From a virus: a stretch of DNA of 64,000 nucleotides. The stretch lies in the IMG/VR virus record IMGVR_UViG_3300026544_000002, positions 1 to 64,000 of that record; one strand, written 5' to 3'. Below, piece after piece: positions 6,123 to 31,025 of the stretch. The translations under genes and the position numbers were made by a program. Position 1 is the stretch's first letter. Every line of letters begins with the position of its first letter. Under the pieces are notes generated by a model. It saw nothing but the letters and a program-made list of their open reading frames with translations. It made no database searches and was not told where the DNA came from.

Positions 6123-6200
6123 GCGCCTGTAGCTCAGTTGGATTAGAGCAACGGATTTCTAATCCGTAGGTCGTAGGTTCGATTCCTACCTGGCGTACCA
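6123..6200 (+). tRNA. tRNA-Arg(UCU)
   Basis: Cloverleaf: anticodon arm ACGGA-TT-TCT-AA-TCCGT, T arm GTAGG-TTCGATT-CCTAC, encoded CCA. Confidence 0.95.
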
Positions 6201-13615: not shown

Positions 13616-13926
13616 AAGGTTTGATAATGAATAAGAAAATTATTTATGTTTTGACAGTATATTATAAATATAGTATGTTGGACATGTCTTTTGATTTTAG
13701 AATCAAAGGAAATATTACATATCGGAATAAAAAATATGCTATTGATGCAATGAAAACACATGATGGTCCTGAATTTCATTATACATATTTTGAAAGACCA
13801 AGTGAAATTATGATAGAAATATTACGTTCAATATCATCAAAATTGTTATCTGTTATAGATGAAGATTTGTATAGAAACGGACCTGTTCAAAATAAGGAGT
13901 ATACTGGTGAAATTGAAATTGAATAA
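13612..13926 (+). CDS. hypothetical protein
   Basis: ATGA-coupled ORF. Confidence 0.55.
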   Translation: MKGLIMNKKIIYVLTVYYKYSMLDMSFDFRIKGNITYRNKKYAIDAMKTHDGPEFHYTYFERPSEIMIEILRSISSKLLSVIDEDLYRNGPVQNKEYTGEIEIE

Positions 13927-14926
13927 TAAAATTCAATTAGTAAATTGGATTTTGACAAGAAAATGTAATTTAGAATGTGATTATTGTGGTATTGTTAGAA
14001 ATAGTAATGAAACAATATATCCCAATATTAATTATTATAATTCTTTTCAAATGAATTATAATTATGTCATAGAATCATTAGAACAATTTAAACAATATTT
14101 ACCAGATTGTTTTCATATTTTTTATGGGGGAGAACCATTTATGTTTCCTCATTTAGATAAAGTTATTCAATATTGTAATGATAATAATATTTGGTACACT
14201 ATTATAACAAATAATTCTAAAAAAATTCAACCTAAAATAATAAAAGTATTAGACAAAGTTGGATTGTTTAGAGGATTAACAGCTAGTATTGATCCTATTA
14301 TTTATGATCCGATTTTTCATCCATCTAAAAAAGATAGAAGAGAAAAAAGTTTAGCTGGTTTGGAAAATTTAATTTCTATTTCTGATAGAGTAGATGATAT
14401 GATGGCTGAAATTACTATTGATAAAAGTAATTTGGAGTATATTTATCAATTAGTAGAAAAATTGACAAAACATAAAATTTGGTCAAGTATTACATTTGTG
14501 GATATTAAGAAATCAAGATATTATGATTTTTCAAATGTTACTGATATAAATGAATTAGTTGATGATACACAAGCATTGAGAAGTGTTTGTGCGAAAATGA
14601 TAGATGATGGTTTATGGATTCATATGGGAGAAGAATTATTAGATAGGACATTGAATATTCTTCCATCTACATTTAATTGTGAATTAGAAAATTATATGCA
14701 CAATTTAACAATAGATGCAGATGGTAGTATTCGTTTGTGTTTAAGAATAAAAGGAAAATACACATCAGATTATTATGTAAAAGATTTCTTTAATGATTTT
14801 GAAAATATTCATAATGCAATGATTGTAGATAAAAAAGAATATTGTAAATTATGTAATTGGACCTGTCCTATTATGAGCAAATTAGCAGTTGAAGAGGATA
14901 TGACAAAAGATATTTTACATATATAA
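13907..14926 (+). CDS. radical SAM protein with C-terminal Twitch/SPASM-like Cys cluster
   Basis: CNLECDYC (CxxxCxxC), GGEP, ITN; C-terminal FNC…IDADGSIRLC…CKLCNWTC; AAGGAG precedes in-frame GTG 13907. Confidence 0.85.
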   Translation: MKLKLNNKIQLVNWILTRKCNLECDYCGIVRNSNETIYPNINYYNSFQMNYNYVIESLEQFKQYLPDCFHIFYGGEPFMFPHLDKVIQYCNDNNIWYTIITNNSKKIQPKIIKVLDKVGLFRGLTASIDPIIYDPIFHPSKKDRREKSLAGLENLISISDRVDDMMAEITIDKSNLEYIYQLVEKLTKHKIWSSITFVDIKKSRYYDFSNVTDINELVDDTQALRSVCAKMIDDGLWIHMGEELLDRTLNILPSTFNCELENYMHNLTIDADGSIRLCLRIKGKYTSDYYVKDFFNDFENIHNAMIVDKKEYCKLCNWTCPIMSKLAVEEDMTKDILHI

Positions 14927-14992: not shown

Positions 14993-15069
14993 GGGCCTTT
15001 AGCTTAGTTGGTTAAAGCCTCCCGCTCATAACGGGAAGATCCTGTGTTCGATTCACAGAGGGCCCACCA
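14993..15069 (+). tRNA. tRNA with CAU anticodon, most likely tRNA-Ile2 (lysidine type)
   Basis: GGGCCTT/AGGGCCC acceptor stem with paired G1-C72 (not initiator), C4-G69 and C5-G68, TCCCG-CT-CAT-AA-CGGGA, CCA end. Confidence 0.9.
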
Positions 15070-15832: not shown

Positions 15833-16168
15833 ATGGCTGAACAATTAGAAAATGCAATTGATTTTTTAGAAATGCTAACAGATGATGAATATGTAAAAGT
15901 ATTTTTTGTAAAAAAGAATGGTGAAAAAAGATTGATGAAAGCAACTCTTAATTTCAAACATATTCCAAAAGAATTTCATCCGAAGGGGTTTAATTTAAAA
16001 GGTATTTTGAAAAAGATCAAATCATCAAATGTATTATCAGTATTTGATTTAGAAAAAATGGCATGGCGATCAATAAAATTAGATACTGTTATTAGTGTTG
16101 TTTCGGCTAAAAATAAAGTGCTTGAATTTAAAATAAGTATGAATCAGTTTCATAATATCGGAGTCTAG
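15833..16168 (+). CDS. WYL_2/Sm-like SH3 beta-barrel protein (DUF2693-like)
   Basis: VFFVKKNGEKRLMKATL…VFDLEKMAWRSI pattern. Confidence 0.75.
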   Translation: MAEQLENAIDFLEMLTDDEYVKVFFVKKNGEKRLMKATLNFKHIPKEFHPKGFNLKGILKKIKSSNVLSVFDLEKMAWRSIKLDTVISVVSAKNKVLEFKISMNQFHNIGV

Positions 16169-16545: not shown

Positions 16546-18837
16546 ATGCCTATCGATTTTTCTAAAATAAGAAAAAATTTAGAGTTAACTGATACCACTG
16601 CACCCGATAGTTCGATGAAAAATGAATCAAAAGTTTTTTCATTTTTAGAATATAAAATTTTAGATGATAGTTTGACTGAATATACTGGATATATATCTAA
16701 AATTATTTTCCAATCTCCTAAAGGTGATTACATGGTTGCTATTTTTAATCCAAAAGATTATGATGAAACTATGAAAATAACCTGTCAATATGTTACAAAC
16801 ACAGAATCGGATATAACTATTTTTGGAGAATGGGAAGAATCTGAAAAATGGGGAAAACAATTTAATTCAACAAAATTTGCAATGGATTTGGATTTGAGTA
16901 AAAATGGATTATTAAAGTTTTTGATTAAATCATCTAATATTGTAGGTATTGGAGAAGCAAAAGCAAAAAAAATAGTAAATAATTATGGTGATAATTTTGA
17001 AAAATTTATGGAAACAGAAACATATATATTATCACAAGAATTATCTATCAATGAAGATATCATTGATAATCTAAAACATGTATGGATTACCCATAAATCA
17101 ACTAATCAAATAGCTGTTAATTTATCAGAATTTCCATTATCACAAAATCATATAATGGAATTAGTTAGATTATATGGACCTGCTGCTATTGAAAAAATTA
17201 GAGAAAATCCATATTTTTTAATCACTGTTCTTCCTTCATTTGGATTTAAAAGAGCAGATGAAATAGCAATGCAAAATGGAATTGATCCAAATAGTTCTAT
17301 ACGAAAACAAGCATGTTTAGATTATTTATTAATGTCTACAGAAAATAGTGGAAATTGTTGGATAGATTATGATTTTCTTATAGATAAAATGAAAAAAGAA
17401 TTATCAGATGTTTCGTATGAAAGTATTCGATATTTTTTAGATGATCAATATGATACCGATACAGTCAAAAAATTTGAAGATGATGGTATTATTAAATTGT
17501 CATCTGTGAATATATTTGACAAAGAAAAATATATAATTAATTATATTATAGAAAATTCTGATTATGTAGAAGAATTTGATTATTTCAAAGGTGGTGTTAG
17601 TGCAGAAGATTTAGAATCATTGAATGAAGATCAAAAAAAAGCTGTAACAAATTCAATGAATTATACTTTTTCTGTTATAACCGGAAAAGCGGGAACTGGG
17701 AAAACATTTGTTATTTCAAAAATTGTTGAAATATTTAGAAGAATAGGAATGGAAGTAGCGTGTGCTGCTCCAACTGGAAAAGCAGCTAGACGTATGGAAG
17801 AAGTAACATGTTATCCTGCTTCTACAATACATAGATTGTTGAAATCAAATGGAGAATTTTTCGAATATAATGAAACAAATAAAATGGAAGATTATGATGT
17901 AATAATTATTGATGAATTTTCTATGGTGAGTATTCCATTAGGGTATCATCTATTTGCAGCATTGCCTAAAAATACAAAAGTGATTATTGTTGGTGATCAT
18001 AATCAATTAACAGCCATCGGAGCTGGTAATATATTCAATGATATTTTAGAATATAATAAAAAATCTAATGAAAAAGTAAAATTCAGAGTATCAGAATTAT
18101 CAAAAGTGGTTCGACAGGCTGGGGATTTGAAGAAAAATTCTGTTGCTATATTAGATGGACAAATTTCTCATGTAAATACAGATGATTGGAGAACTTCTTT
18201 CACAGATCAATTTGAAGATGATTATAAATTATCTTCTTTCGTTGTTGATTTGATGATTAATTCTGATAAATATACTGGATATCCATTGAAAGATGTTCAA
18301 TTGATAATTCCAATGAAAAAAGAAACATTAGAATTATCAACATTTAAAATGAATAAATTATTACAAAAAGCTATTCAATATAAAAAATATGGTAATTTAA
18401 TTGAAATTACTAAATATCAAGATATTTTATATAAGCACGATAAAGTTATGCAAATAAAAAATGATTATGAAATAGAAGTCATGAATGGAACGATTGGAAA
18501 TGTTTCATATATAAGTAGTGATGGTAATATCACAATTGATTTTGAAGGAGGGGTTTCTATTACATATTCGAAAGGGGATGTTAGATTAAATAATGTTGTT
18601 TTAGCATATGCAATGACAACTCATAAAACACAAGGATCTGAATATCCTTGTGTTGTATTTGTGATGCATAATTCACATTATAATATGTTAAATAGAAATC
18701 TTCTTTATACCGCAGTTACAAGAGCAAAAGAAAAAGTAATGATTTTTGGTGATCGTCGTTCTATTGCAATTGCATTGAGTAGAGATGATACATCTGATAA
18801 AAAAACAAATTTTGATTATCATATGATTCAATATTAA
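16546..18837 (+). CDS. RecD2-like SF1B helicase
   Basis: N-terminal OB/HhH (GIGEAKA, ENPY, GFKRAD), GKAGTGKT, APTGKAA, TIHRLL, DEFSM, GDHNQL, THKTQGSEY, YTAVTRAK. Confidence 0.93.
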   Translation: MPIDFSKIRKNLELTDTTAPDSSMKNESKVFSFLEYKILDDSLTEYTGYISKIIFQSPKGDYMVAIFNPKDYDETMKITCQYVTNTESDITIFGEWEESEKWGKQFNSTKFAMDLDLSKNGLLKFLIKSSNIVGIGEAKAKKIVNNYGDNFEKFMETETYILSQELSINEDIIDNLKHVWITHKSTNQIAVNLSEFPLSQNHIMELVRLYGPAAIEKIRENPYFLITVLPSFGFKRADEIAMQNGIDPNSSIRKQACLDYLLMSTENSGNCWIDYDFLIDKMKKELSDVSYESIRYFLDDQYDTDTVKKFEDDGIIKLSSVNIFDKEKYIINYIIENSDYVEEFDYFKGGVSAEDLESLNEDQKKAVTNSMNYTFSVITGKAGTGKTFVISKIVEIFRRIGMEVACAAPTGKAARRMEEVTCYPASTIHRLLKSNGEFFEYNETNKMEDYDVIIIDEFSMVSIPLGYHLFAALPKNTKVIIVGDHNQLTAIGAGNIFNDILEYNKKSNEKVKFRVSELSKVVRQAGDLKKNSVAILDGQISHVNTDDWRTSFTDQFEDDYKLSSFVVDLMINSDKYTGYPLKDVQLIIPMKKETLELSTFKMNKLLQKAIQYKKYGNLIEITKYQDILYKHDKVMQIKNDYEIEVMNGTIGNVSYISSDGNITIDFEGGVSITYSKGDVRLNNVVLAYAMTTHKTQGSEYPCVVFVMHNSHYNMLNRNLLYTAVTRAKEKVMIFGDRRSIAIALSRDDTSDKKTNFDYHMIQY

Positions 18838-18840
18838 AAT

Positions 18841-18888
18841 AAAAATAGCCCCCATTATTTTTAACAATAGATAATGGGGGCTATTTTT
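18841..18888 (+). terminator. intrinsic terminator (bidirectional-looking)
   Basis: AAAAATAGCCCCCATTAT…ATAATGGGGGCTATTTTT inverted repeat. Confidence 0.85.
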
Positions 18889-18943: not shown

Positions 18944-19282
18944 ATGAAATATTGGTTAGGAATTTCTAAATTTTCAACGAGTAAAAATAGAATAAATATA
19001 ACTTCTGAGGATGGTTTTCATATAGTTATATATTTAATAGATGGCGAAAAATTTTTATATAACAAATGCGAATCTACATTGAAATTACAATCAAAAGAAA
19101 TATTTATAACAAAAACAAAAGGTAGTGGACAAACAAAATCTATAATGGGTTTCGCTTCTTTTATGTCTAATATTGGGTTATTGTTAAAAAAACATATTAT
19201 AAATAAAAAAATAAAAAAATATGATTTGAATAATTTTTATGAAAATATTTTCAATATTATAAAACAAATTTTGGAGGAATAA
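18944..19282 (+). CDS. hypothetical protein, first gene of the Ubl-system operon
   Basis: ORF between the terminator and the E2-like gene. Confidence 0.6.
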   Translation: MKYWLGISKFSTSKNRINITSEDGFHIVIYLIDGEKFLYNKCESTLKLQSKEIFITKTKGSGQTKSIMGFASFMSNIGLLLKKHIINKKIKKYDLNNFYENIFNIIKQILEE

Positions 19283-19291
19283 TATAAGAGA

Positions 19292-21625
19292 ATGGAAACT
19301 ATTCATTTAGAATCTTCGTTAGAATTACCAGCTACATATGTATTATCGAATCTCATAGTGAACACACAACCTGAAAGAATTATGAAATATAAATATGTAT
19401 ATGGAACATTTGATGATATTTATTGGACAAAAATGTTTATTGTGCCAATGGGGGTAAGATCATTTTTATTTGATACTTCTTTTGAAAATCATTTTAAAGA
19501 TGTTTTGTATTCTACAAAAGTGACTATAAATAATAGATCATATAATAAAATAAAATTGTTGATGCCAGATTTATTATTTGTTGTAAAATTACATCCTTAT
19601 GGATCAAATGAAATTGCTCAATTGTATGTACAACAAATAAATGGACCTTTTGATGTTAACAATATTTCAAATTTGTCAAATGCCCCATTGCCAAATTTAT
19701 ATGATTCTGGACAAGTATGTCAATCTGGAAAAATTTCTATCATGAAAATGTATAAAAACAAATCATATGTGTTGAAAAATATGTTTGATATATCAGAATA
19801 TTATATTGATATGTTTTTGAATTCTGCATTTAATAATGATTTGACCAGTACTTACCAATATTCAATTATAAAAAAATTAGGATTTCTATCAATTACTGAT
19901 TTTTTAAATATAGCAAGTGACCCTAAAAAATATAATATATTAAAGAAGTTATATATCAAAAATCATCTAGATGACCATAGTTCTTTAAGAGAAACATTTA
20001 AAGCATCTTTTTTAAATAATAAAAATAAAGGAGTGTGTAAGTCATTATTTGAAAATAATTTTATAAAATCAAATGATAATGATATGGTTACAAGATTAAT
20101 TATAAATAATGATTCTTTTATAAACAGTATCAGAATTAATGATTATATAAAATATGATAATGAAATTGTAAAAGTATTATCATTTGGAGAAAATGTTACA
20201 AATAGACAAGTTTTTATGAGTTCGTCAAATTATGAAGAAGGTCATTATATAAAATATATGACAGACTCTTATAGAATTGGAACAATTCATTTTTCAGAAA
20301 TATTGGAAAAAGTTGAATTAGATTCAATAGAAGATGTTGATGAAAAAGATTATCCAATTGATATTAAAAACAAATTCATAAGAAGTTATAAAACAGAAAA
20401 TCTTCATTTAATAGTTGGAATCGTAAAAACTATTATGAATAATGACTATTTTTATAAAATTAAAAGAGGGATAGATTCCGTTGATTTTGTCAAATTTAAT
20501 ATCGAACGACCTCGTGATATATATAAAATAGTAGAATTGGGATTACCCGATGTTTTAAATAACGAATGTTACAGAAGTAAATATGTTTATGGTGGGGAAA
20601 ATGCTCATATAATGTCTATTGATACAAATAAAACATATTCTTTTGATTCTATAAAAGATCGTTTGATTGAAGTATCTAATAGTTTTATAACAATGTTAAA
20701 CGAAGATGAAACAGAAATCGAAGAGTTGAATACAAATTATTTGGTTAAAAAAGATATATATGAGAATCATTTGAACATGGATACTTCTGATATATCTATT
20801 ATTATCGACATGGATAATTCTGTTATTCCATTGCATGATAATAATTTGAAATTTAAATCAGATAGAGAAAACTCTTTGTATGGATTAGATATTGATGCTT
20901 CATTATATATAAGAGAAAATATCGATGAATATTTAGAAAAATTAGTTGCTACATGGAATAAAAATGGTGAAGCAAAAAATATCAAATATTGGGATAGAGA
21001 AAAAGGTAATTACGCAATAATGGATTTGGTATTAAAGAAAGATCAATTAAGATTGCCTATTGATATCAATGATCAATCATTTTGTAGTAAATATTCGATT
21101 GAAGATTTTTATTATGATAATGATGTAACATCAATATTTGTAAATGTCAAAAATTTGGAAAATAAAGATGAAGAAATTTATGGGTTAACTTTGATAAAAA
21201 TTTTAGAATTTTATAAAAATAATTCAAATGAACCAGTGTCTTATTTTAAATCAGATATAGAAAATAAAGATAATAGATATATTAATAAATATGTTAGTAT
21301 TAATAAAAAAGTACAATTCAATAGTGTAAAATGTGAAATTTCAAAAGCATTTAAAGTATTTCAAATAATAGATACTGATTTTACATCATCTGTTAGATTT
21401 AATAGATTTTTTACTTCTGATAATATTGTCATATGTATCAATAAAGAAATTGATCCTTTTGAAAAAATATTTGAAATAAGAGAAGCCTCTGAATTTACTG
21501 ATCATAGAAATGTTGAAATAATAATGACATCTTCGTATCAGGCATATAATTATGTTCCTCGTGATACATATATTGCTAATTTTCTAATGAATCCTAGATA
21601 CAACCAAGTTTATCTTGGTATATAA
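19292..21625 (+). CDS. prokaryotic E2 family D (PRTRC-B-like) domain fused to ~580 aa of unknown sequence
   Basis: MPDLLFVV…APLPNLYDSGQVCQSG…FLNSAFNNDL fits the E2-D pattern with candidate catalytic Cys; operon with JAB, E1 and Ubl. Confidence 0.7.
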   Translation: METIHLESSLELPATYVLSNLIVNTQPERIMKYKYVYGTFDDIYWTKMFIVPMGVRSFLFDTSFENHFKDVLYSTKVTINNRSYNKIKLLMPDLLFVVKLHPYGSNEIAQLYVQQINGPFDVNNISNLSNAPLPNLYDSGQVCQSGKISIMKMYKNKSYVLKNMFDISEYYIDMFLNSAFNNDLTSTYQYSIIKKLGFLSITDFLNIASDPKKYNILKKLYIKNHLDDHSSLRETFKASFLNNKNKGVCKSLFENNFIKSNDNDMVTRLIINNDSFINSIRINDYIKYDNEIVKVLSFGENVTNRQVFMSSSNYEEGHYIKYMTDSYRIGTIHFSEILEKVELDSIEDVDEKDYPIDIKNKFIRSYKTENLHLIVGIVKTIMNNDYFYKIKRGIDSVDFVKFNIERPRDIYKIVELGLPDVLNNECYRSKYVYGGENAHIMSIDTNKTYSFDSIKDRLIEVSNSFITMLNEDETEIEELNTNYLVKKDIYENHLNMDTSDISIIIDMDNSVIPLHDNNLKFKSDRENSLYGLDIDASLYIRENIDEYLEKLVATWNKNGEAKNIKYWDREKGNYAIMDLVLKKDQLRLPIDINDQSFCSKYSIEDFYYDNDVTSIFVNVKNLENKDEEIYGLTLIKILEFYKNNSNEPVSYFKSDIENKDNRYINKYVSINKKVQFNSVKCEISKAFKVFQIIDTDFTSSVRFNRFFTSDNIVICINKEIDPFEKIFEIREASEFTDHRNVEIIMTSSYQAYNYVPRDTYIANFLMNPRYNQVYLGI

Positions 21626-21644
21626 AAAGGAGATTTAAAAAGAA

Positions 21645-23702
21645 ATGATTTTGAACCAAGAAGAAATATTTGATGATGGGTATATATGTGTTAAAAATCC
21701 AAATTTTACAATAACTCGTACTAATTTCTTAAAAAATTTATTAAATTATACAACCAATGAAATAAATAATGAGAATTGTATATGGTTTAGAAATAATGGA
21801 ATAATGTGGCATACTTTATATACAATAGAACCTGGATATAAAGAAATGATGATAAATGATAAAGAAATTATTTTATCATTGCCTCAATTAGTGATACATG
21901 TTGGAAAAAATAAGTATTCTAAATATGAAATAGATATATTTTTTCAAGATACCAATGGTAATTTAGATAATGTTTATGAATCTTTTTTACATGTAGATAA
22001 TATCGATATTGATATTGGAGAAAGTAATTATGTAAAAGAATCAACATTATTAATTAATCATATTTTACATGAATATAATTTTCAATATGATGGAAGTATT
22101 GATGAGCTATATATGATGATAAATCAGAACAATGTATTTGATAATTTTCCTATGATTGATATTAAATTATCAGATATGATAGAAATTTGGAAAAAAGAAA
22201 TAGATGAATGTATAAATTTGAATATTATTTATAATATGGTGATTAAACAAAGAAATGACTTTACCCCCATGTCTTATTATATTAAAAAGAAAATATTCAT
22301 GGGTGTATTATATGAAACAATGAAACATATTAAATTAGGAAACAAAAAATATTTGATTTATGGTATTGATTGTTATGAAAATATAAAAGATTCTATTAAT
22401 AATAATTTTAAAAATGATAAAATTTTATTATATGATTTGGAACAACGTAAGAAAGTTGCATTACCATTGAAAAGAATAATAGAATCTAAATTCAAAATGT
22501 TTGAAAATGGACATTCTATTATACCAAATAGTTCTATAAAAATAGGGAATTATATAAAATATGTAAATAGAGGTAGCGATGGTCCTGTTGCGATAACTCC
22601 TGAGAAAATAATTAATATCAGATTAGATAAAGATAACTATTCATTGATTTTGGAAACAAATCGTTTAAAACGGAATAAAGAAGTTATAACAAATAATATT
22701 TCGTATAATTTAATCGAAGAACCAAGAAATATTGATGCATTAGATATTTATCAATTAATTGGTCTTAAAGATAATAAAGAAAAATTTCCAATTTTTAAAA
22801 TAAAAGATTCTACGATTGTTTCAAAAAAAGATAATAATCAAGAAAAATATTATTTGAATGATATATGTGATTTTATTGGTTCACATTGTTTTTATAATAA
22901 AATAGAAGATTTTTATTTTGATATACTTAGTAGAAAACAATTTGTTGATATGTTAAATATTTTGAATAAAGAAATAAAAACTTTAAAAAATAATTATTAT
23001 TTTGGTTATATACCTAATAATAAAATGCTTGGAAAAAAATTATTAAAATGTGATAATTTATATATCGATGATGAAGCAGGTGTTATACACTTACAATGTG
23101 ATGATGAATATTTTAATAAAGAAATTGATGATATAAAATTAACTGATCATGAAGCTGATGTTGTTATGTTGCCTTGTGTTATCAATGATGTTCATATAGA
23201 TCCTGATGAAATCTATATTTCTCATTTAAAAAGATTTTTTAATAGAAGAATACGAATCAATGGTGTACGTATAGAAAATAATGAATTGGTTTATATGTTT
23301 ACAACAATTGATGATATGGAAAATCATACAAATACAATCCGTGATAACTATTTTTGTGGAAAACAAATTTATATAGAAGGATTGCAAATTGGTCAATATG
23401 GTAAATTAAAAGATATTGGTGCTTCATTAGGATTTAAAAAATCTTTATGGCATGGTATCAAATATTTTTATGAGAATAAAAATGGTGAAAAAATGGTATT
23501 GTTTGAAAATAATATTGCTGTTAATGTTAAATTGATTGATATTGATTATTTTAATAATACCTCTAGAAATGTAAAAAAGAGAAATATGACATTTTTGTCG
23601 AGTAATGATTTACGATCTATAAGAATGTCAACAAAAAGAAAAATAACAGATCATATTTTACACACATTTGATTCTATTGCTTGTGAAATTCATACAAATT
23701 AA
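21645..23702 (+). CDS. large hypothetical protein, probable degenerate paralog of the E2-D fusion
   Basis: N-terminal IEPGYK…LSLPQLVIHV parallels VPMGVR…LLMPDLLFVV of the upstream gene but lacks the PN…GxVC motif. Confidence 0.5.
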   Translation: MILNQEEIFDDGYICVKNPNFTITRTNFLKNLLNYTTNEINNENCIWFRNNGIMWHTLYTIEPGYKEMMINDKEIILSLPQLVIHVGKNKYSKYEIDIFFQDTNGNLDNVYESFLHVDNIDIDIGESNYVKESTLLINHILHEYNFQYDGSIDELYMMINQNNVFDNFPMIDIKLSDMIEIWKKEIDECINLNIIYNMVIKQRNDFTPMSYYIKKKIFMGVLYETMKHIKLGNKKYLIYGIDCYENIKDSINNNFKNDKILLYDLEQRKKVALPLKRIIESKFKMFENGHSIIPNSSIKIGNYIKYVNRGSDGPVAITPEKIINIRLDKDNYSLILETNRLKRNKEVITNNISYNLIEEPRNIDALDIYQLIGLKDNKEKFPIFKIKDSTIVSKKDNNQEKYYLNDICDFIGSHCFYNKIEDFYFDILSRKQFVDMLNILNKEIKTLKNNYYFGYIPNNKMLGKKLLKCDNLYIDDEAGVIHLQCDDEYFNKEIDDIKLTDHEADVVMLPCVINDVHIDPDEIYISHLKRFFNRRIRINGVRIENNELVYMFTTIDDMENHTNTIRDNYFCGKQIYIEGLQIGQYGKLKDIGASLGFKKSLWHGIKYFYENKNGEKMVLFENNIAVNVKLIDIDYFNNTSRNVKKRNMTFLSSNDLRSIRMSTKRKITDHILHTFDSIACEIHTN

Positions 23703-23728
23703 AACTATATTATAAAAAAGAGGAAAAA

Positions 23729-24781
23729 ATGTCTAAAAAGATTTTTGTATTAGATAAGGATTTGGATTTGTCAGAAGTTAAAAAATCTAATCATTGTTAT
23801 ATTATTGCAAAGAATGGTGTATTCTTTAAAGATAATCAACATAACATTGAAACATGTACTAAAATTGATAGTATTGAAGGATTGTCTTCTTTGCAACCAT
23901 ATATTAAATGGAGATTTCCAAAAATCACCAAAAGACAATTTAACATGGTTATTCAATTTTTCAGAAAAGTTTATACAAAGCATAAATCAGAATGTATGGT
24001 ATTGATAGGTTGGGATAGAAAGAAAAAAGATATTATATTATTTGCTCCTGATTCACAAGAAGTGTCAGGGGCGAGTATCAAATATCAAATGACTAATATC
24101 CCAGGTGTTGCTTTAATTGGTTCGATTCATTCACATGCCAGTATGTCAGCGTTTCATTCTGGAGTTGATATTGCTGATGAAATGAATTTTGATGGTTTGC
24201 ATATTACAATTGGAAAATTTTCTGATAAAACAAATACTTTTCAAATTTCATCTCAATTAACTTCTGGTAAAATGAGAGAAACTATTGATCATACTCAAAT
24301 AATTGAAGATATCTATATTAATTATAATGTTAAATTAGAAGGAAAAGGTTTGAAAGATTGTAGCAATGACAGCATCATAGAAGCTATCATGAATAATAAA
24401 TGTGATATTAAATATGATGGTGAAATGTGTATTGATGAAAAAGAATTAGATAAAGAAGATAAAGAAATTATCGAAAGTTGGTTAGAAACAGTTGTCCCCC
24501 CACGGACATATATTTATGGTAAAAATTGGCACAGTGGTTATGGATATAACAAGCAACAGAGTTTCACACCTATTAAGAAAGATGTACCAGCAGTTGAACA
24601 TCCAATAGGAAGCAATGATTCTTTGTTACAAGTACAAGATGAAATTGATTTAGCTACAATGTATGGAGTAGAAGAATTAGATGAATTGTTAATTGATGAT
24701 AATTATGATTTAGATATTATGGATAATGCTAATATTTTTAATAAAGGTAATAAAAATAACGCTTCAAAAGTGGAGATGTAA
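23729..24781 (+). CDS. JAB/JAMM metalloprotease (PRTRC-A/Prok-JAB type)
   Basis: YIIAKNGVF, SECMVL (catalytic E), GSIHSHASMSAFHSGVDIADE (HxH-x7-S-xx-D), GLHITIG; acidic tail. Confidence 0.9.
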   Translation: MSKKIFVLDKDLDLSEVKKSNHCYIIAKNGVFFKDNQHNIETCTKIDSIEGLSSLQPYIKWRFPKITKRQFNMVIQFFRKVYTKHKSECMVLIGWDRKKKDIILFAPDSQEVSGASIKYQMTNIPGVALIGSIHSHASMSAFHSGVDIADEMNFDGLHITIGKFSDKTNTFQISSQLTSGKMRETIDHTQIIEDIYINYNVKLEGKGLKDCSNDSIIEAIMNNKCDIKYDGEMCIDEKELDKEDKEIIESWLETVVPPRTYIYGKNWHSGYGYNKQQSFTPIKKDVPAVEHPIGSNDSLLQVQDEIDLATMYGVEELDELLIDDNYDLDIMDNANIFNKGNKNNASKVEM

Positions 24782-25491
24782 TGAAAACAAATATTTATTT
24801 AGTAGGCATGGGAGGAATTGGTTCACAATTATGTGAACCAATTTGTCGATTTGTTAATTATTTAGAAAATAAATCTGATTATTGTATTACTTTCATTGAT
24901 GGTGATGAATATGAATCTTCTAATCAAACAAGACAAACTATTGAATTAGCTGATATTGGACAAAACAAAGCAGTTAGTCAATATAGTAAAATGTATAATT
25001 TATTTCCAAATTTAGAAATAAATGCAAATGCTATATATATCAATAATCAGAATATCAAAGATTGTTTTAATAAACCAGATGAAAACACGATTATTCTATC
25101 TGGTGTGGATAATAACAAAACAAGAAATGTTATTCAACAATATTGTCTTGCATTAAAAAATGTTCTGTTACTATCAGGAGGTAATGAATATATTGATGGT
25201 GATGTGCAAATTTATGCAAGAAAACAAGGAGTTGATTTGACTCCCCCGATTTGGAAATGGAATCCTAATATTAAAAATCCAAAAGACCGGTCGCCGGAGG
25301 AGATTGGTTGTGATGAATTAGTAGAATCCACACCTCAGTTGATTTTTACAAATGGTATGGTTTCCGCTTGTATGTGTATGGCATTTTATAATTATTATAA
25401 AATGTTTGATACTGATGTTTCCATTGACAAAAGTGTAGTAATGTTTGATATCCCTGAATTATCAGTTGTATCAAAGATGAGAAATCTGTAG
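24781..25491 (+). CDS. ThiF/E1-like ubiquitin-like-protein activating enzyme
   Basis: VGMGGIGS, IDGDEYESSNQTRQ, GQNKA, GVDNNKTR, SGGNE, candidate catalytic Cys in PEEIGCDE…PQLIFTN. Confidence 0.9.
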   Translation: MKTNIYLVGMGGIGSQLCEPICRFVNYLENKSDYCITFIDGDEYESSNQTRQTIELADIGQNKAVSQYSKMYNLFPNLEINANAIYINNQNIKDCFNKPDENTIILSGVDNNKTRNVIQQYCLALKNVLLLSGGNEYIDGDVQIYARKQGVDLTPPIWKWNPNIKNPKDRSPEEIGCDELVESTPQLIFTNGMVSACMCMAFYNYYKMFDTDVSIDKSVVMFDIPELSVVSKMRNL

Positions 25492-25543
25492 TAAAATTAA
25501 CTAGTTGATTTAAAAAAGAAACAAATTAAAGGAGAACAAAAAC

Positions 25544-26152
25544 ATGTCTGATTTCAATTTTGATAGTGTTGTTGCTGTAGCTGATTTGCAAGAAATGACT
25601 GTAAAAGACCTTCGGGGTATTTGTGCTGATCTAGGATTGGCTCGGTATAGCAAGGCACCAAAACCAAATTTGGTTAAAATGATTTCTGAATATTATTCAG
25701 ATGCGTTAATGGAAATGACTGCAAAAGATTTACGATCTATTTGTGTCGATCGTGGTATTACTGGAGTTGCTAAAACAACAAAACCTAATTTGATTGATTT
25801 GCTTTTAAAATCTGTTCAGCCAGTAAATGCACCAGAAGAAATTTCGTCAGAAGATATTGTTGATATTTCTTCGGATGATAATGAAAATAATGAAGATTCC
25901 GATTCTTCATCTGGAACTATTACCGTTATTAACGGTGCTCGCTCTCGGACGATTCCCTTTGAAGAAGGGAAAACAGTGTGGGATATCCATCAACAGATGG
26001 CTAATGAAATGGGGATTGCCGCACATCCAAGTTTTACAGTAAATGATACAGATGCACCAAATAATGTTGTTATCCGTGAAGGTGACACTATTGAATTCTT
26101 TAAAGTAAGTGGGACTAAAGGAATCATAGGTACACTTTTGAAAAAATGTTAA
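25544..26152 (+). CDS. ubiquitin-like protein precursor: two Rho-N/SAP-like helical repeats, acidic linker, beta-grasp domain ending GTKG plus 9-aa extension
   Basis: Repeats LQEMTVKDLRGICADLGL and LMEMTAKDLRSICVDRGI; Ubl ITVING…GKTV…TVND…IREGDTIEFFKVSGTKG|IIGTLLKKC. Confidence 0.8.
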   Translation: MSDFNFDSVVAVADLQEMTVKDLRGICADLGLARYSKAPKPNLVKMISEYYSDALMEMTAKDLRSICVDRGITGVAKTTKPNLIDLLLKSVQPVNAPEEISSEDIVDISSDDNENNEDSDSSSGTITVINGARSRTIPFEEGKTVWDIHQQMANEMGIAAHPSFTVNDTDAPNNVVIREGDTIEFFKVSGTKGIIGTLLKKC

Positions 26153-26175
26153 ATTATTAATTCATAAAAATATAT

Positions 26176-26219
26176 AAGAATGTCTCGTATATGTTTATCG
26201 TATACGAGACATTCTTTTT
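26176..26219 (+). terminator. intrinsic terminator closing the first Ubl operon
   Basis: AAGAATGTCTCGTATA-9nt-TATACGAGACATTCTT followed by TTT. Confidence 0.85.
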
Positions 26220-26256
26220 CATATAAATAAAATATAAAAATGGAGATTAATAGAAA

Positions 26257-26598
26257 ATGATGATTATTGATGATATTTTAGAAAATATAGAACAATCTGA
26301 TTTTAGAAAAGATTTAATTATTCTCTGTGATAAAATGAAAGAACAAATAACAGAAAAAAATGATAGATTAGATGAAACAGAAATTTTGTATTATTATTGT
26401 TATTCTTCAACTAAATTTTTTAATAAATTTCTTGTATTAACAATGGATATTTTTGATGAAGAAATTTACTATATTGATGTATGGGCATTTAATAAAAAAA
26501 CAGAAGAATATAAACGATATAATACAAAAACAGTGAATGCTTCATCTGCTAAAGAATTATTAATTAAATATGCAAAAATACTAAAGAATTTAATATAG
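26257..26598 (+). CDS. hypothetical protein
   Basis: GGAG RBS. Confidence 0.7.
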   Translation: MMIIDDILENIEQSDFRKDLIILCDKMKEQITEKNDRLDETEILYYYCYSSTKFFNKFLVLTMDIFDEEIYYIDVWAFNKKTEEYKRYNTKTVNASSAKELLIKYAKILKNLI

Positions 26599-26610
26599 AA
26601 TGGAGGAATT

Positions 26611-27408
26611 ATGATAGGAATAATCGGAGTGGGATCAATTGGTAAAAATTTATTAGATTCTTTAGTATCAAAACTTCCAAATGAAAAATTTATAGTTATA
26701 GATGATGATACGATTAATAAACATAATATCCAATACAACAAAAAATATATTGGATTTGAAAAAACATTAGCATGTGTCGATCAGTATAAAAATGTATCGG
26801 CAATATCAGAATATGTTAATAACGATAAATTATCAACATTAATAAAAAAATCATTAGACCAATGTTCTACTATTTTTGATTGTAGAGATACTTTTGAAAA
26901 CAGAATAACATTTGATGCTATTAAAATATTCGTCAATAAAGATAAATTAATAATTGATTTTAGAAAAAAAATTTTGTATAGGTATGATGTTGAAGGTGAA
27001 TATGTTAGTTATATAAGTGACCAATTTATAAAATCATTGATCATAACTTTTGTAAACATGTGGATAAATAAAAAATCTTGTATTGAAAAATATATTAAAA
27101 ATGAAAATGCGATTTCGATTAATCAAATTGGTTCGATTGAAGAATTATATTCTTCTGTTGCAGTAGCAAAAGATATTGAAAAAATTATAAATAATAAAAT
27201 AAAAGATATCGATACTGTCAAAGTAGATATTTTTGATGGTTTGTATAATATAGTGAATAAAACATATGATTTAAAAGAGTATAAACCATCTGATATCGTC
27301 AGTATAATTAATAGAGAAACTCATTGGTTTCCAGCTATGTATTTTATGCCAGAAACAATAAAAAATATCATGTATCTAAGAATCTTTAATCAAACAGGAG
27401 GTGCGTGA
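26611..27408 (+). CDS. second, divergent ThiF/E1-like protein ending in …QTGGA
   Basis: IGIIGVGSIG, VIDDDTINKHNI, IGFEK, IFDCRD Rossmann motifs; lacks the NxxRQ arginine. Confidence 0.7.
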   Translation: MIGIIGVGSIGKNLLDSLVSKLPNEKFIVIDDDTINKHNIQYNKKYIGFEKTLACVDQYKNVSAISEYVNNDKLSTLIKKSLDQCSTIFDCRDTFENRITFDAIKIFVNKDKLIIDFRKKILYRYDVEGEYVSYISDQFIKSLIITFVNMWINKKSCIEKYIKNENAISINQIGSIEELYSSVAVAKDIEKIINNKIKDIDTVKVDIFDGLYNIVNKTYDLKEYKPSDIVSIINRETHWFPAMYFMPETIKNIMYLRIFNQTGGA

Positions 27409-27429
27409 TCAAAAAATACGGAGTGTTAT

Positions 27430-28107
27430 ATGCCACATAATATTGATACACCAACCGTTTCAAATCATATTGTTTTACGAGAAGACAATTCATTGATATT
27501 GATTGATTGTAATATTGTTCCACGATACATAGAATGTTTTGGATTACGATTGATGATAAGTAAGATACATGATGAAACATGTATCATAAAAAAATTATTG
27601 ATTAAATGTATTCCAAGAAATAAAGAAAACCAACAAGCAGAAATAACTAACGTGTGGCTGATAGATGCATTGCATCCAAATGCTACTATTATTCAAAAAG
27701 ATTTTAATTTTGATAATAATGTGTTAGATGAATTATCTGATTATACAACAAATCCAATAAAACAATCATTTGATTTATTTAAATTTTGCAAAGATCCATA
27801 TTTATCGTATGCAGGAGATAAAATTAATATAAGTATTTTAAAATTAGTGAATGATCTATCATTCTGGAATTTTGATTCTGGATATTGGAATGATATGTCA
27901 AAAATTTCTATTGACATTGGTGATGCAGATGAAGTATATGATCATCAAAGTAAAAAAATGATATCTGCAAAAAAAGCGAAAAGAAGATTACGATTAGGAA
28001 GATGTATGAATTTGATTCAAAAACCTTTTTCGTTATTAACGAATGAGAATGAAAAATATTGTTTAGATGAATCGATGCGAATTTTTAAAAATATTAAATT
28101 GGTATAA
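27430..28107 (+). CDS. putative E2/UBC-fold protein
   Basis: LHPNA…(insertion)…FKFC followed by a helix and LSFWNFDSGY; directly after a ThiF-like gene. Confidence 0.45.
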   Translation: MPHNIDTPTVSNHIVLREDNSLILIDCNIVPRYIECFGLRLMISKIHDETCIIKKLLIKCIPRNKENQQAEITNVWLIDALHPNATIIQKDFNFDNNVLDELSDYTTNPIKQSFDLFKFCKDPYLSYAGDKINISILKLVNDLSFWNFDSGYWNDMSKISIDIGDADEVYDHQSKKMISAKKAKRRLRLGRCMNLIQKPFSLLTNENEKYCLDESMRIFKNIKLV

Positions 28108-28109
28108 CG

Positions 28110-28159
28110 AAAATAAGAAAACAGTCTATGAATTCAATCATGGGCTGTTTTCTTATTTT
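28110..28159 (+). terminator. long hairpin/terminator between the Ubl locus and the RNAP genes
   Basis: AAAATAAGAAAACAGTCTATGA / TCATGGGCTGTTTTCTTATTTT, about 22-bp stem with two G-U pairs. Confidence 0.75.
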
Positions 28160-28230: not shown

Positions 28231-31005
28231 ATGCCAAAATTACTGAATAGAAATTTCGCCAAAGATTTACCTGAAATAACAACATCTAATTATTTTGAAA
28301 AGAAAAAAAGATATCATAAAGATGGTTTGTTTTCTGAACATATATTTGGATTGTCAAACAATTATACTTGTCGATGTGGTATTTATCATGGCAAACATGC
28401 CGAAGGACAAAAAAGCAAATGTGGTGGGAAATTTTGTACTGATTTAGAAATTACAAACAGCATAAAACGACGAAGACAATTTGCAAAAATCACTTTACCA
28501 ATACCTTTGCTGAATAGAACATATTTGGCATTAGTAAAAAGAACTTTACCTGTAACGGAAAAAGAATTATTTGATGATGTAAATAAATTGATGAAATCTC
28601 ATAGGACAATTCTATTAAAATATGATGATGAATATATGATAAAATCATTAGATGAAGAAGAAAATATAAATGAATTGAAATATGAATTTTGGCAAATGCA
28701 TGAAGCAGTTGAAAAATTAATTAGACATGTTATAACCATTTATATTACAATTGATCCAACAAATGAAGATTATAAAATGTTGCTTAAACAATTAGAAGAA
28801 CAATTGTTTATGTATGAAGTAATTGTTATACCTCCTTCAATGAGACCTATTTCTCAAATAAATCCAACAACAAACTCCGTTGATCAGTTAAACCAATTCT
28901 ATTATCAATTATTAGTAAAAAAAGAAATTATGGCAGCTGGTGATATTGATGTAACCCGTCATATGAAAATTTATCAGCAATATTATATGCAATTTCAAAA
29001 AACAGTTGATGATATGTTTGATTATGTAATAAATGCTGTTTCTAAAAAAGAAGGATTGATTCGTGGGAATATTTTAGGAAAACGAATTGATTTTTCAGGA
29101 AGAGCTGTTATTGCGCCATCACCGACAATTGAATTAGATGAATGCATATTACCATATCGAATGGTATTAGAATTATATAAAATTCCTATTGCTAAGAAAT
29201 TGATTGAAAAAGGATATTTTAAATTTATCCATTCTGCACTAGAACGAGTCGAATCATGTCAATTTTATAATGATCCACAATTGATTGAAGTTTGTAGATC
29301 GGTTATTGGTGAAGATGTATGTTTACTTAATAGACAACCTAGTCTTCATAAATTGAGTTTGGTTGCATTTAAAATAAAAGTTGAACCTGTTGATGTTATT
29401 TATATTCATCCAATGGTTTGTCGTGGTTTCAATGCTGATTTTGATGGCGATGCAATGGCAGTATATCTTCCTGTTACAGAAGAATCACAAGCAGAAGCTA
29501 AATCACAAGCATTATCAACAAATTGTTTGTTAAATCCAACTGATATGAAAATAACTACGACTCCTAGCCAAGAAATGGTTTTAGGATTGTATATGTTAAG
29601 TACAATTTCTAAAGGAAAATATGCAAAGAAAGTTTTATATAAAGGTGAAGAAATAACAGAAGGAATGAAAATAATTAATGAATGTTTTCCAGATGATTTT
29701 CCTTTGATTAACAAACCAGTAACATCTGATGTTATTCGACAATATATTTATAATTCGTTTAATTTATATAATGGTGATATTAAAAATATTTTAGATAATA
29801 TCAAAACTGTTGGATTTGTTTATGCTACTTTGATTGGACATACGATTTCTTTACAAGGAATGTTATCACAAACTAAATTACGTGATGAAATATATGCACT
29901 TCCAAAAGTAACTGATCAAATTAAAGAAATAACAGGTGATAGAGTTTCTAAATTTTTGAAAGAACATTTTAAATATACTGATATGATAGAATCAGGAGCA
30001 AGAGGAAGTTGGGATCAAGCTCGACAATTAATTCTTTCTCGTGGATTTATTTCTAACTTCAAAGGAAATATATTAACAACTCCTATTGAAAATTCATTTG
30101 TTGATGGATTAACACCAATGGAATTTTTTACATCATCTTTTGGTTGTAGGAAAGGATTATTAGATGTTGCTGTTAAAACATCATTTTCTGGATATCTTTT
30201 TAGAAAATTTACATTTGCTTGTTCGAATTTGATGTTAGATCATGATAATGAAGATTGTGGAACAGATCAATATGTTTCTATTTATATTTCTGATATCAAA
30301 AAAGCACAATCTATAAATGGAAGATGGGTTACATTAGAACCTAATGATCATGAATCATTATTCATGGTAGAACCGTCTAATATGAAAAGAATCATTGGAA
30401 AAAAGATTTTCATGAGAAGTCCAATGTATTGCAAAACTGAAAAAATTTGTAAAAAATGTTATGGTGAATTATATAGATATTTAAACAAAAGTCGATTTAT
30501 TGGTTCTATTGCTGCTCAAGCATTAGGAGAATCAAATACACAAATGGTTTTGAGAACATTTCATACATCTGGTGTTGCCTCTATTGATGAAAATTCTATC
30601 AACGAATCAGGTGAAATGGAACAAAAAGATATTGTTGGTGCATTAGCATTAATTTCTAAATTAGTTCACATTTATGAAAAAGATAAAAATGCGGATGATT
30701 TGGTGTCTGATCTTTTTGAAATTTATTCTAAAGATAGATTCTTTATGCATGTTCATTTTGAATGTTTGGTTTCACAATTAATGTGGTATAACGATAAACA
30801 GAAATGGAGAACTGTAGAAAATCGTCATGAAAAACCATACCAGATGAAATCAATTGTAGCGATTCCGTCATTAGAAAGTTGGATAATGGGAATTTCTTTT
30901 TCAAATACTAAAAAAGAATTAATTAATAGTATGTTACAATCTGGAATATATTCAGGGGGTGTCATAGATAAAATAATGTGCGGTGTTTCATATAAAAACA
31001 TTTAA
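28231..31005 (+). CDS. phage multisubunit RNA polymerase, beta'-like subunit (unsplit)
   Basis: DGLFSEHIFG, Zn-finger CRCG…C…C, GNILGKRIDFSGRAVI, LNRQPSLH, catalytic NADFDGD, bridge helix RKGLLDVAVKTSFSGYLFRK, trigger loop QMVLRTFH. Confidence 0.96.
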   Translation: MPKLLNRNFAKDLPEITTSNYFEKKKRYHKDGLFSEHIFGLSNNYTCRCGIYHGKHAEGQKSKCGGKFCTDLEITNSIKRRRQFAKITLPIPLLNRTYLALVKRTLPVTEKELFDDVNKLMKSHRTILLKYDDEYMIKSLDEEENINELKYEFWQMHEAVEKLIRHVITIYITIDPTNEDYKMLLKQLEEQLFMYEVIVIPPSMRPISQINPTTNSVDQLNQFYYQLLVKKEIMAAGDIDVTRHMKIYQQYYMQFQKTVDDMFDYVINAVSKKEGLIRGNILGKRIDFSGRAVIAPSPTIELDECILPYRMVLELYKIPIAKKLIEKGYFKFIHSALERVESCQFYNDPQLIEVCRSVIGEDVCLLNRQPSLHKLSLVAFKIKVEPVDVIYIHPMVCRGFNADFDGDAMAVYLPVTEESQAEAKSQALSTNCLLNPTDMKITTTPSQEMVLGLYMLSTISKGKYAKKVLYKGEEITEGMKIINECFPDDFPLINKPVTSDVIRQYIYNSFNLYNGDIKNILDNIKTVGFVYATLIGHTISLQGMLSQTKLRDEIYALPKVTDQIKEITGDRVSKFLKEHFKYTDMIESGARGSWDQARQLILSRGFISNFKGNILTTPIENSFVDGLTPMEFFTSSFGCRKGLLDVAVKTSFSGYLFRKFTFACSNLMLDHDNEDCGTDQYVSIYISDIKKAQSINGRWVTLEPNDHESLFMVEPSNMKRIIGKKIFMRSPMYCKTEKICKKCYGELYRYLNKSRFIGSIAAQALGESNTQMVLRTFHTSGVASIDENSINESGEMEQKDIVGALALISKLVHIYEKDKNADDLVSDLFEIYSKDRFFMHVHFECLVSQLMWYNDKQKWRTVENRHEKPYQMKSIVAIPSLESWIMGISFSNTKKELINSMLQSGIYSGGVIDKIMCGVSYKNI

Positions 31006-31025
31006 AAGAAAAAGGAATATAATAC

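Follow-up and report, generated by a model that had tools for sequence, protein, structure and literature searches.

A stretch of 64,000 nucleotides from the IMG/VR phage record IMGVR_UViG_3300026544_000002 (positions 1-64,000 of that record, hereafter the window) carries, directly upstream of the phage RNA polymerase (RNAP) genes, a compact cassette that encodes candidates for a ubiquitin-activating enzyme (E1), a ubiquitin-conjugating enzyme (E2), a JAB/JAMM metallopeptidase and the precursor of a ubiquitin-like protein (Ubl), here called the tag. Family matches, motifs and structural models lead us to regard this cassette as probably a phage-owned ubiquitin-like protein-conjugation pathway, distantly related to the PRTRC (type 6d) operons that bacterial mobile elements carry. 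A first-pass annotation of the DNA had proposed an apparently complete, virus-encoded E1, E2, JAB and Ubl pathway at this place with RNAP beta' and beta directly downstream, and the open reading frame (ORF) coordinates and motifs that it quoted are all present; family, motif, fold and synteny evidence now support the core of the proposal.

The source record is a linear fragment of 102,491 bp with a CheckV completeness of ~33%, and the window has a GC content of ~26%, an even composition and nearly all of its genes on the + strand. The record encodes a large terminase, topoisomerase II, an SbcC-like nuclease, a RecD2-like helicase and unsplit RNAP beta' and beta subunits, and among the isolated phages in INPHARED the best match to its beta' subunit is at most 29% identical; from this gene content and this distance, the source is judged to be an uncultured, probably jumbo, tailed phage. 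Nine + strand ORFs, all intact and tightly packed, occupy positions 18944-28107, and three hairpins with T-runs split them into a six-gene unit 1 and a three-gene unit 2 (Table 1), the same two terminator-bounded units that had been described before.

Table 1. Features of the cassette and its borders, in order along the window
Feature	Position	Strand	Remarks
Intrinsic terminator	18844-18886	+	Ends the upstream RecD2-like helicase gene and borders unit 1 on its 5' side; read directly as a GC-rich inverted repeat with a T-run behind it
p112, small protein	18944-19282	+	First gene of unit 1
Giant E2 (candidate), 777 aa	19292-21625	+	N-terminal E2/UBC-like domain; Tudor/SH3-like barrel
685-aa protein	21645-23702	+	Specific to the window's clade
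JAB/JAMM metallopeptidase	23729-24781	+	Catalytic domain at ~residues 60-175; acidic C-terminal extension
Minimal ThiF-type E1, 236 aa	24781-25491	+	Start overlaps the JAB stop
Ubl precursor (tag)	25544-26152	+	Two SAP/Rho_N domains, acidic linker, ThiS-like domain, tail
Strong intrinsic terminator between units 1 and 2	26176-26216	+	18-bp stem and T-run
p113, small protein	26257-26598	+
ThiF2, second ThiF-fold protein	26611-27408	+	Ends TGGA
p225, divergent mini-E2 family member	27430-28107	+	HPN kept; Asn at the Cys column
Terminator-like hairpin before the RNAP genes	28112-28158	+	Inverted repeat and T-run, read directly
Phage RNAP beta' (924 aa) and beta (1022 aa)	28231-34094	+	PHROG RNAP families; conserved downstream neighbour

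The four-gene core

The E1 candidate matches the Pfam ThiF family at 68.6 bits against a cut-off of 28.1 (E 5.8e-19) and NCBIfam TIGR03736 PRTRC_ThiF at 47.3 bits (E 1.6e-12), level with the ThiF and MoeB models. It carries the residue set of the ThiF/MoeB/E1 enzymes, namely the GxGxxG loop, the Arg-Gln finger, the Lys and the Mg-binding Asp, and ten positions are invariant in 30 distinct relatives: G9, G11, G14, D40, N48, R51, Q52, K63, D110 and R115. Cys177, a candidate catalytic cysteine, is likewise present in 30 of 30; residues 133-143, which were fixed by the search pattern, are excluded from this evidence of invariance. Among the isolates in INPHARED, the best match reaches 27% identity and is a lone ThiF protein of the Bacillus jumbo phages vB_BceM_WH1, Edson and KLEB27-3; no JAB, E2 or Ubl is annotated near it, and no INPHARED isolate carries the cassette. 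This lone ThiF gene of a Bacillus jumbo phage (LC597490.1, 183960-184817, L004) adjoins a NADAR gene, and the ESM Atlas holds several large, mostly viral ThiF clusters.

The JAB protein bears the complete metal-binding and catalytic motif of its family (E ... HxH-x7-S-xx-D), with E88, H134-x-H136, S144 and D147 all invariant in 23 relatives, and so fits the JAB protease of the first-pass annotation. TIGR03735 PRTRC_A is its only specific NCBIfam match (45.8 bits, E 4.9e-12; 39.3 bits for the ortholog in the related locus L005), and on Pfam Prok-JAB it scores 20.7 bits (E 3.8e-4), under the 25-bit cut-off.

The tag opens with two SAP/Rho_N domains (Pfam Rho_N E 3.9e-12, SAP E 3.3e-7). Its C-terminal part matches ThiS with E 0.002 when the whole protein is searched and with E 3.6e-4 (21.5 bits) when residues 118-193 are searched in isolation, and the L005 tag gives weak matches to TGS and ThiS. 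The predicted ThiS-like domain ends in G190-T-K-G193, the GTKG end pointed out previously, after which the protein continues for nine residues, IIGTLLKKC. The pattern GD..EF.K..G.KG at this end is invariant in six close relatives and in four tags of the L005 clade. Among the C-termini of the 35 tags read, the majority end precisely with G-x-K-G and the terminal Gly is invariant; the remainder add C, F, R, YK, IDVGL, DRKGC or the IIGTLLKKC of the window, so that the tails span 1-9 residues. A fixed Gly at the end of the protein, or with only a short tail of variable sequence behind it, is the classical mark of a modifier whose reactive end a peptidase exposes, and because the tag family shows exactly this, the protein is best read as a putative precursor whose reactive end would be freed by a peptidase. 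The SAP heads, for their part, argue for tagging that is linked to DNA or RNA. A protein of 146 aa encoded just 5' of the E2 gene in L010 (4230-4670), a member of the L005 clade, has an N-terminus that reads by eye as SAP/Rho_N-like and an acidic tail, and would be a second protein with the head of the tag.

The E1:Ubl complex model that had been suggested as a check was run with E1 and tag residues 118-193, and gave an interaction prediction score from aligned errors (ipSAE) of 0.66 (0.68, 0.57 and 0.66 in the individual runs), whereas three controls scored 0.00 at best; the mark applied to this score is reached by 58 of 80 solved complexes and by 2 of 110 mismatched pairs. The runs agreed on no fewer than 81% of contacts, and the partners had a predicted local distance difference test score (pLDDT) of at least 84. 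The modelled tail of the tag, residues 186-193, lies in the ATP site of E1, where it contacts the P-loop (11-14), residues 108-112 around Asp110 and residues 132-136, a placement that we take to resemble those in the MoeB-MoaD and ThiF-ThiS complexes. Because E1-Ubl complexes have already been solved, this pass may reflect likeness to them and is not proof of binding.

The E2 candidate is an unusually large protein of 777 aa, whose N-terminal domain (~residues 20-225) would hold the active site LPN-x7-Cys143. Pfam PF14460 Prok-E2_D, with a gathering cut-off of 25 bits, scores 16.5 bits on the window's protein (E 0.007), 14.3 bits on the homolog of the L005 clade, and 24.3, 26.3 and 30.6 bits on three orthologs, two of which exceed the cut-off. 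A profile search of 1.84 billion representatives returned just ten members of the family, in which P134, N135, G140, C143, Q144 and the FNxDL motif are invariant; the Asn and Cys columns (N135 and C143) also hold without exception in 16 broader relatives found on viral contigs. The N135-x7-C143 spacing is that of the HPN...Cys site of UBC proteins, and no His is invariant among the ten aligned members. Other searches added little: a profile of the giant-E2 family found nothing significant among PDB sequences, a search of viral contigs with the 777-aa protein and a search of metagenome contigs with the E2 profile returned no loci, and a degenerate DNA pattern for APLPNLY..G.VCQS found none in viral contigs and a single metagenome contig, L002.

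Structural modelling of the 777-aa protein with AlphaFold 2 (AF2) yielded a pLDDT of 63-90 at residues 25-225 and poor values elsewhere, with a C-terminal half that is mostly beta. Compared by VIA with 48,161 PDB representatives, the N-domain model matched UbcH7 (Z 6.1 over 126 aa, 4.1 A), UBE2E1 (Z 6.0), UbcH10 (Z 5.9), Citrobacter BubB (Z 5.8) and then further E2, UEV and RWD chains, chains of these kinds making up more than 20 of the best 50 rows at Z 5.0-6.1. Because these matches are consistent with one another, with the motif and with the Pfam matches of orthologs, the E2 fold predicted for the N-domain is a well-supported reading, in line with the E2-D-like domain proposed earlier. Beyond it, residues 265-345 (window 20084-20326) form in the model a Tudor/SH3-like barrel (Z ~5), whose structural matches at Z ~5 include Tudor, BAH and Spt5 KOW domains and the RNAP-binding domains CarD RID and UvrD/PcrA C-terminal domain, and a Foldseek search with the whole model retrieved mostly multi-barrel proteins, such as Spt5 chains and tandem Tudor proteins, at a template-modelling (TM) score of ~0.1. 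Small barrels of the Tudor/SH3 kind are common, and the RNAP-binding flavour of these matches is a lead only and not specific.

Conservation and synteny across viral contigs

The synteny survey that had likewise been suggested used a degenerate DNA pattern built on an invariant peptide of E1. It retrieved 41 viral contigs, of which many exceed 100 kb, and in 40 of them BLAST identified cassette genes, always in the order E2, JAB, E1, tag. Among contigs with more DNA downstream, ~20 continue with ThiF2 and the mini-E2, and all 13 loci that extend far enough and carry ThiF2 have RNAP beta' and then beta next. Three contigs (L043, L045 and L059; IMG/VR 3300029268_002499, 3300039140_000143 and 3300039152_000131) hold the four-gene core only and continue into unrelated genes, with no ThiF2, mini-E2 or RNAP within 2.5-4.5 kb downstream; their tags end in ...IMPSGSKG or ...TKPSGRKG. 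Adjacency to RNAP is thus conserved in most but not all lineages, and because it is frequent and not universal, RNAP is a candidate target and no more. A separate search with RNAP beta' found one distant locus, which was of no use for synteny.

Between the window and L005, identity amounts to 39-41% for E1, 34% for JAB, 26% for the tag, 46% for beta' and 42% for beta. The gene order is kept across lineages only 46% identical in beta', a sign of selection on the cassette. The window's clade is the most divergent branch and has its own peculiarities, namely two SAP heads on the tag in place of one, the extra 685-aa protein and a p225 without the cysteine. The same arrangement of helicase, p112, E2 and 685-aa protein was found on the part of metagenome contig L002 that was read, and further relatives of the tag (P0006), the E2 (P0002) and p225 (P0019) probably lie together on one 28,266-bp JGI contig.

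The survey also bears on the soundness of the locus. A phage origin and a non-chimeric state are supported by the terminase, RNAP and topoisomerase II genes, by the even composition and by the recurrence of the same order in ~40 independent viral contigs, and the earlier concern that the contig might be chimeric at this place is contradicted by the same evidence. It is very unlikely that the cassette is non-working, through gene decay or because phage and bacterial DNA were wrongly joined in assembly: the record is linear and only ~33% complete, and the unit 2 E2 of the window lacks its Cys, but the ORFs are intact and tightly packed, the composition is even, the catalytic residues are invariant across 23-30 sequences and the gene order recurs throughout the surveyed contigs.

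The second unit, the small proteins and the neighbourhood

ThiF2 scores 22.2 bits on Pfam ThiF (E 8.8e-5), under the cut-off, and its L005 ortholog, to which it is 28% identical (E 9e-15), scores 50.4 bits. Its neighbours in the ESM Atlas are viral ThiF clusters at 0.93, and its AF2 model has a mean pLDDT of 32.8. It keeps the GxGxxG loop, the Lys and Asp-x4-Arg, and the Arg-Gln finger is replaced by NIQYN here and by N[LI][RK]NS in most relatives. By these matches it appears to be a true relative of the ThiF fold, in keeping with the second ThiF-like protein recognised at first pass. Its C-terminus reads TGGA, and among 22 relatives read [T/S]-G-[A/G/S]-A occurs in 21 and the terminal Ala in all. 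The last ~65 residues might conceivably form a beta-grasp; hhalign of ThiF2 against the tag family was not significant (probability 0.2%), and Pfam searches with C-terminal pieces were blank.

The neighbouring p225, with HPN at residues 82-84 and a C-terminal extension of ~110 aa, joins in multiple alignments a family of 108-168-aa proteins that are placed after ThiF2 in relatives and are here called mini-E2s. In this wider family all 15 distinct relatives have a Cys after the HPN; the spacing is HPN-x8-C except in two, where an insertion of 12 residues makes it HPN-x20-C. The catalytic Cys column holds N in p225 and S, S and L in three close relatives. The first-pass annotation had described an HPN...C protein here; the HPN and the alignment with mini-E2s stand, and the active-site Cys does not. 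The best PDB sequence match of the L005 mini-E2 is the E2 active site HPNVNFKTGEICLD (E 0.4, not significant alone), p225 and the mini-E2s have no Pfam match even at E 10, and their profile finds no match in the PDB. Comparison of the mini-E2 family with the giant-E2 family by hhalign gave nothing, p225 and the L005 mini-E2 showed no significant similarity by BLAST, and the Atlas model of p225 has a pLDDT of 0.35. The homology of p225 to the mini-E2s rests on the multiple alignments; and because the canonical Cys kept by relatives is lost, the p225 of the window appears to be a cysteine-less variant and at best a pseudo-E2.

A pseudo-E2 had also been proposed for the 685-aa protein of unit 1, and this label was not confirmed. 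Its identity as an E2 paralog was set aside as unproven, since hhalign against the E2 family gave E 0.024 and a probability of 2% and BLAST against E2 gave E 0.046 and only out of register. The protein has no family match in Pfam, NCBIfam, PADLOC or other scans; it has a 34% identical ortholog in L002 (E 9e-84), and in the 37 relatives a single large protein occupies this place.

Each unit also begins with a small protein. p112 has no family match in Pfam, NCBIfam or other general scans, and is 69% identical to the protein at the same position in L002 (4195-4530, - strand), where the E2 beside it is only 27% identical, which makes it the most conserved operon protein between the two. p113 has no match in general family scans either, and in other clades, namely in L035 (5763-6185), L048 (8454-8804) and L055, its weak relatives (25-27%) are found directly upstream of the E2 gene. 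This placement suggests that p113 is a small, mobile component of the system, which may correspond to the alpha-helical fifth protein found in type 6d operons.

Immediately 5' of the cassette lies the RecD2-like helicase gene (16546-18837), as it does in L002, and two genes before it a WYL_2 Sm-like barrel protein (15833-16168, E 2e-12). A FolE2-type GTP cyclohydrolase I (34081-34959, E 2.5e-59) directly follows RNAP beta, and a radical SAM protein is encoded upstream of the cassette at 13859-14926; a radical SAM gene is found upstream also in L005, L030 and L048. FolE2 and the radical SAM protein may possibly belong to a 7-deazaguanine-type route for the modification of DNA or tRNA. The replication module of the window further contains a tRNA-Arg(TCT) at 6123-6200 and a tRNA-Met(CAT) at 14993-15069.

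A predicted conjugation pathway and its relation to known systems

The pathway that we consider likely would start from the tag, made as a precursor in which two nucleic-acid-binding SAP/Rho_N domains are followed by a linker and a ThiS-like domain that is predicted to be a beta-grasp. JAB would cut off the nine residues after Gly193; the minimal E1 would bind the C-terminal domain, take the tail into its ATP site and adenylate Gly193, after which the tag would perhaps pass to the invariant Cys177 of E1 as a possible thioester. From there it would be transferred to Cys143 of the 777-aa E2, whose long C-terminal part, including Tudor/SH3-like barrels, could serve as a built-in substrate selector, and it would end on lysines of phage or host proteins, a mark that JAB, the likely eraser, might also reverse. 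Because the tag carries SAP domains, tagged proteins could be tethered to DNA or RNA, or tagging could occur on nucleic acid. Unit 2, with ThiF2 and p225, would contribute an accessory pair, consisting in most relatives of a ThiF protein and a cysteine-bearing mini-E2 and, in the window's clade, of a ThiF protein and a mini-E2 that has apparently lost its Cys. The scheme builds on intact catalytic residues under long-term selection, the precursor signature, the docking model and the fixed synteny, and extends by inference to the chemistry after adenylation, the targets and the purpose.

Several points weigh against this interpretation. No E3, no target and no ubiquitin-fold domain (UFD) or Cys domain of E1 could be identified. 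The tag ends in Lys-Gly and not Gly-Gly, its ThiS score of 21.5 bits falls just under the cut-off of 22.5, its beta-grasp fold is a prediction, and a profile search of PDB sequences with the tag family returned nothing significant. The window's own E2 domain lies under the Pfam Prok-E2_D cut-off, and the Z of 5-6 obtained for it by VIA is "middling" by the calibration of that tool. The 685-aa protein, p112 and p113 are assigned no role in the proposed pathway. Scores on the PRTRC models are far under their cut-offs, at 45.8 of 101.8 bits for JAB, 47.3 of 144.75 for E1 and, for the orthologs of E2, at most 23.4 of 131.45. Finally, a literature search found no functional study of PRTRC, and the cassette itself is known from sequence and models alone.

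A more elaborate version of the pathway, and an unlikely one, would have two linked modifiers. Cap2 is known to activate the C-terminus, Gly or Ala, of a protein that is not a Ubl, and this offers a possible analogy for the conserved T-G-[G/A]-A end of ThiF2: ThiF2 might be activated at its [T/S]-G-[G/A/S]-A end and passed on through an HPN-Cys mini-E2, much as Cap2 does with CD-NTase. Alternatively, ThiF2 might be an inactive adenylation subunit that pairs with E1, and would then be a viral counterpart of the heterodimeric eukaryotic E1. In either form, both arms would mark the adjacent phage RNAP or DNA-bound host proteins and thereby switch transcription.

Other functions for the same proteins have to be weighed against a phage-owned conjugation pathway. 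It is quite unlikely that the phage carries the cassette as a defence or superinfection-exclusion system of the Bil or type II CBASS (an antiphage system that signals with cyclic oligonucleotides) kind, tagging the proteins of competing phages. All characterised bacterial sets of E1, E2, JAB and Ubl are anti-phage (PMC10557695, PMC11601596), and the E1 weakly matches CBASS Cap2-type PADLOC models (best 7.8e-8); yet E2, JAB and the tag have no PADLOC match, and the genes sit on the same strand within a replication and transcription core, with a fixed order and RNAP neighbours across lineages 46% identical in beta', unlike variable accessory genes.

Lower in our estimate stands a role in counter-defence, by which the phage enzymes would act on host Ubl immunity, JAB stripping the conjugates of Bil or CBASS or a decoy tag flooding the system. 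Phages often carry genes for inhibitors of the defences they meet, the tail proteins of phages are tagged by Bil (PMC11601596), and JAB enzymes deconjugate. What is conserved here, however, is the full writer set of E1, E2 and tag, which goes beyond an eraser or a decoy, and it is conserved in contigs of very different composition and hence probably in different hosts, while similarity to Bil is limited to fold (BilD E 0.0066).

Lower again comes the view that the tag is a sulfur carrier. In the CysO/Mec and QbsE/QbsD pairs a JAB enzyme uncaps a sulfur carrier, and by analogy E1 would adenylate a ThiS/MoaD-like protein to form a thiocarboxylate that delivers sulfur to a cofactor or to a tRNA or DNA nucleoside, with JAB acting only to uncap it. 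The nearest Pfam family of the tag is indeed ThiS, the best named matches of E1 include ThiF and MoeB, and the wider surroundings contain FolE2 and a radical SAM gene. Against this, there is always an E2 whose Asn and Cys are invariant, the tag ends in K-G and not G-G and carries SAP domains, and the ORFs scanned nearby include no sulfur-transfer partner, whether rhodanese, cysteine desulfurase, ThiG, MoaE, TtuA or a CysM-like protein; FolE2 and the radical SAM protein would fit 7-deazaguanine chemistry better.

If the cassette is a protein-conjugation pathway, its significance lies in who owns it. Ubl conjugation in prokaryotes has so far been shown by experiment only for the anti-phage systems type II CBASS and Bil and for Bub, and here a lineage of large phages keeps its own predicted writer, carrier, eraser and tag in the core of its genome. 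Viruses of bacteria would then also use covalent protein tagging as a tool, just as eukaryotic viruses do. The parts of the pathway are small, separate and intact, so that rebuilding it in vitro is feasible, and the nucleic-acid-binding heads of the tag, the candidate substrate-binding barrels of E2 and the adjacent RNAP give concrete leads. The cassette would also open a first way into PRTRC, an uncharacterised family that occurs on plasmids and integrative and conjugative elements (ICEs).

It is to PRTRC that JAB, E1 and E2 are nearest. PRTRC, which we infer to correspond to the type 6d operons described by Iyer, Burroughs and Aravind in 2006 (PMC1779556), shares with the phage cassette separate genes for a JAB, a small E1 without Zn or Cys domains, an E2 of family D (by the scores of orthologs) and a Ubl (here the candidate tag), together with an E2 that lacks the classical His and small extra proteins that accompany the set. 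The differences are equally plain, in that the E2 domain of the phage heads a 777-aa protein with predicted Tudor-like barrels, the tag has SAP/Rho_N heads, and the carrier is a lytic-type jumbo phage and not a plasmid or ICE. Type 6d operons have a conserved His after the E2 Cys and an alpha-helical fifth protein (PMC1779556), and that His is absent here. The NCBIfam equivalog cut-offs are 101.8 bits for TIGR03735 PRTRC_A, 144.75 for TIGR03736 PRTRC_ThiF and 131.45 for TIGR03737 PRTRC_B; on the last of these the window's E2 has no match and its orthologs, for which PRTRC_B is the only or best NCBIfam match, score 17-23.4 bits (E 3e-5 to 3e-3). No ORF of 18944-28107, the tag included, matches the NCBIfam PRTRC Ubl (protein C), and no ParB-like family occurs among the neighbouring ORFs scanned. 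Since all scores are far under the equivalog cut-offs and the PRTRC Ubl, ParB and type 6d His are missing, the cassette is, by its sequences, a distant relative of PRTRC and not a member. The first-pass label "PRTRC/Bub" lumps different systems, of which the enzymes resemble PRTRC, at scores far under its cut-offs, and do not resemble Bub.

With Bil (BilA-D; PMC10557695, PMC11601596) the cassette has in common separate genes for E2, JAB, E1 and a Ubl (here the candidate tag) and the lack of an E3. In Bil, JAB exposes or removes the tag and E2 is thought to choose the target (PMC10557695, PMC11601596). BilD, however, is a large E1 of inactive adenylation, active adenylation and CYS domains (IAD-AAD-CYS), whereas the E1 here is a single adenylation domain, and in PADLOC it matches BilD over 35 residues only (E 0.0066), with no match to BilA-C. 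Bil is moreover a host defence that tags phage tail proteins (PMC11601596), and the present set is encoded by a phage. Type II CBASS, with Cap2 and Cap3, similarly combines E1 and E2 chemistry with a JAB eraser, but Cap2 is an E2-E1 fusion without a free Ubl, and the phage locus has no CD-NTase or effector. Like Bub (6E/DUF6527; PMC11601596), the cassette would employ Ubls with varied N-terminal domains, JAB cleavage of a pre-protein and an E1 without a Cys domain, homodimeric in Bub; the serine E2, the fused parts (Ubl-E2 and JAB-E1) and the required BubE protease of Bub (PMC11601596) are not seen here.

Our literature search, whose partial coverage gives no proof of absence, found no paper on a phage-encoded set of E1, E2, JAB and Ubl; the nearest report, a preprint, is of an Asgard archaeal virus that has three ThiF genes (10.1101/2021.07.29.454249). 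The sole phage case in Iyer et al. 2006 (PMC1779556) is the lambda-type pair of TAPI (Ubl) and TAPK (JAB), which likewise places a Ubl beside a JAB. That pair belongs to a tail module and has no E1 or E2, in contrast to the jumbo phage lineage described here, in which a full predicted writer set is built into the replication and transcription module.

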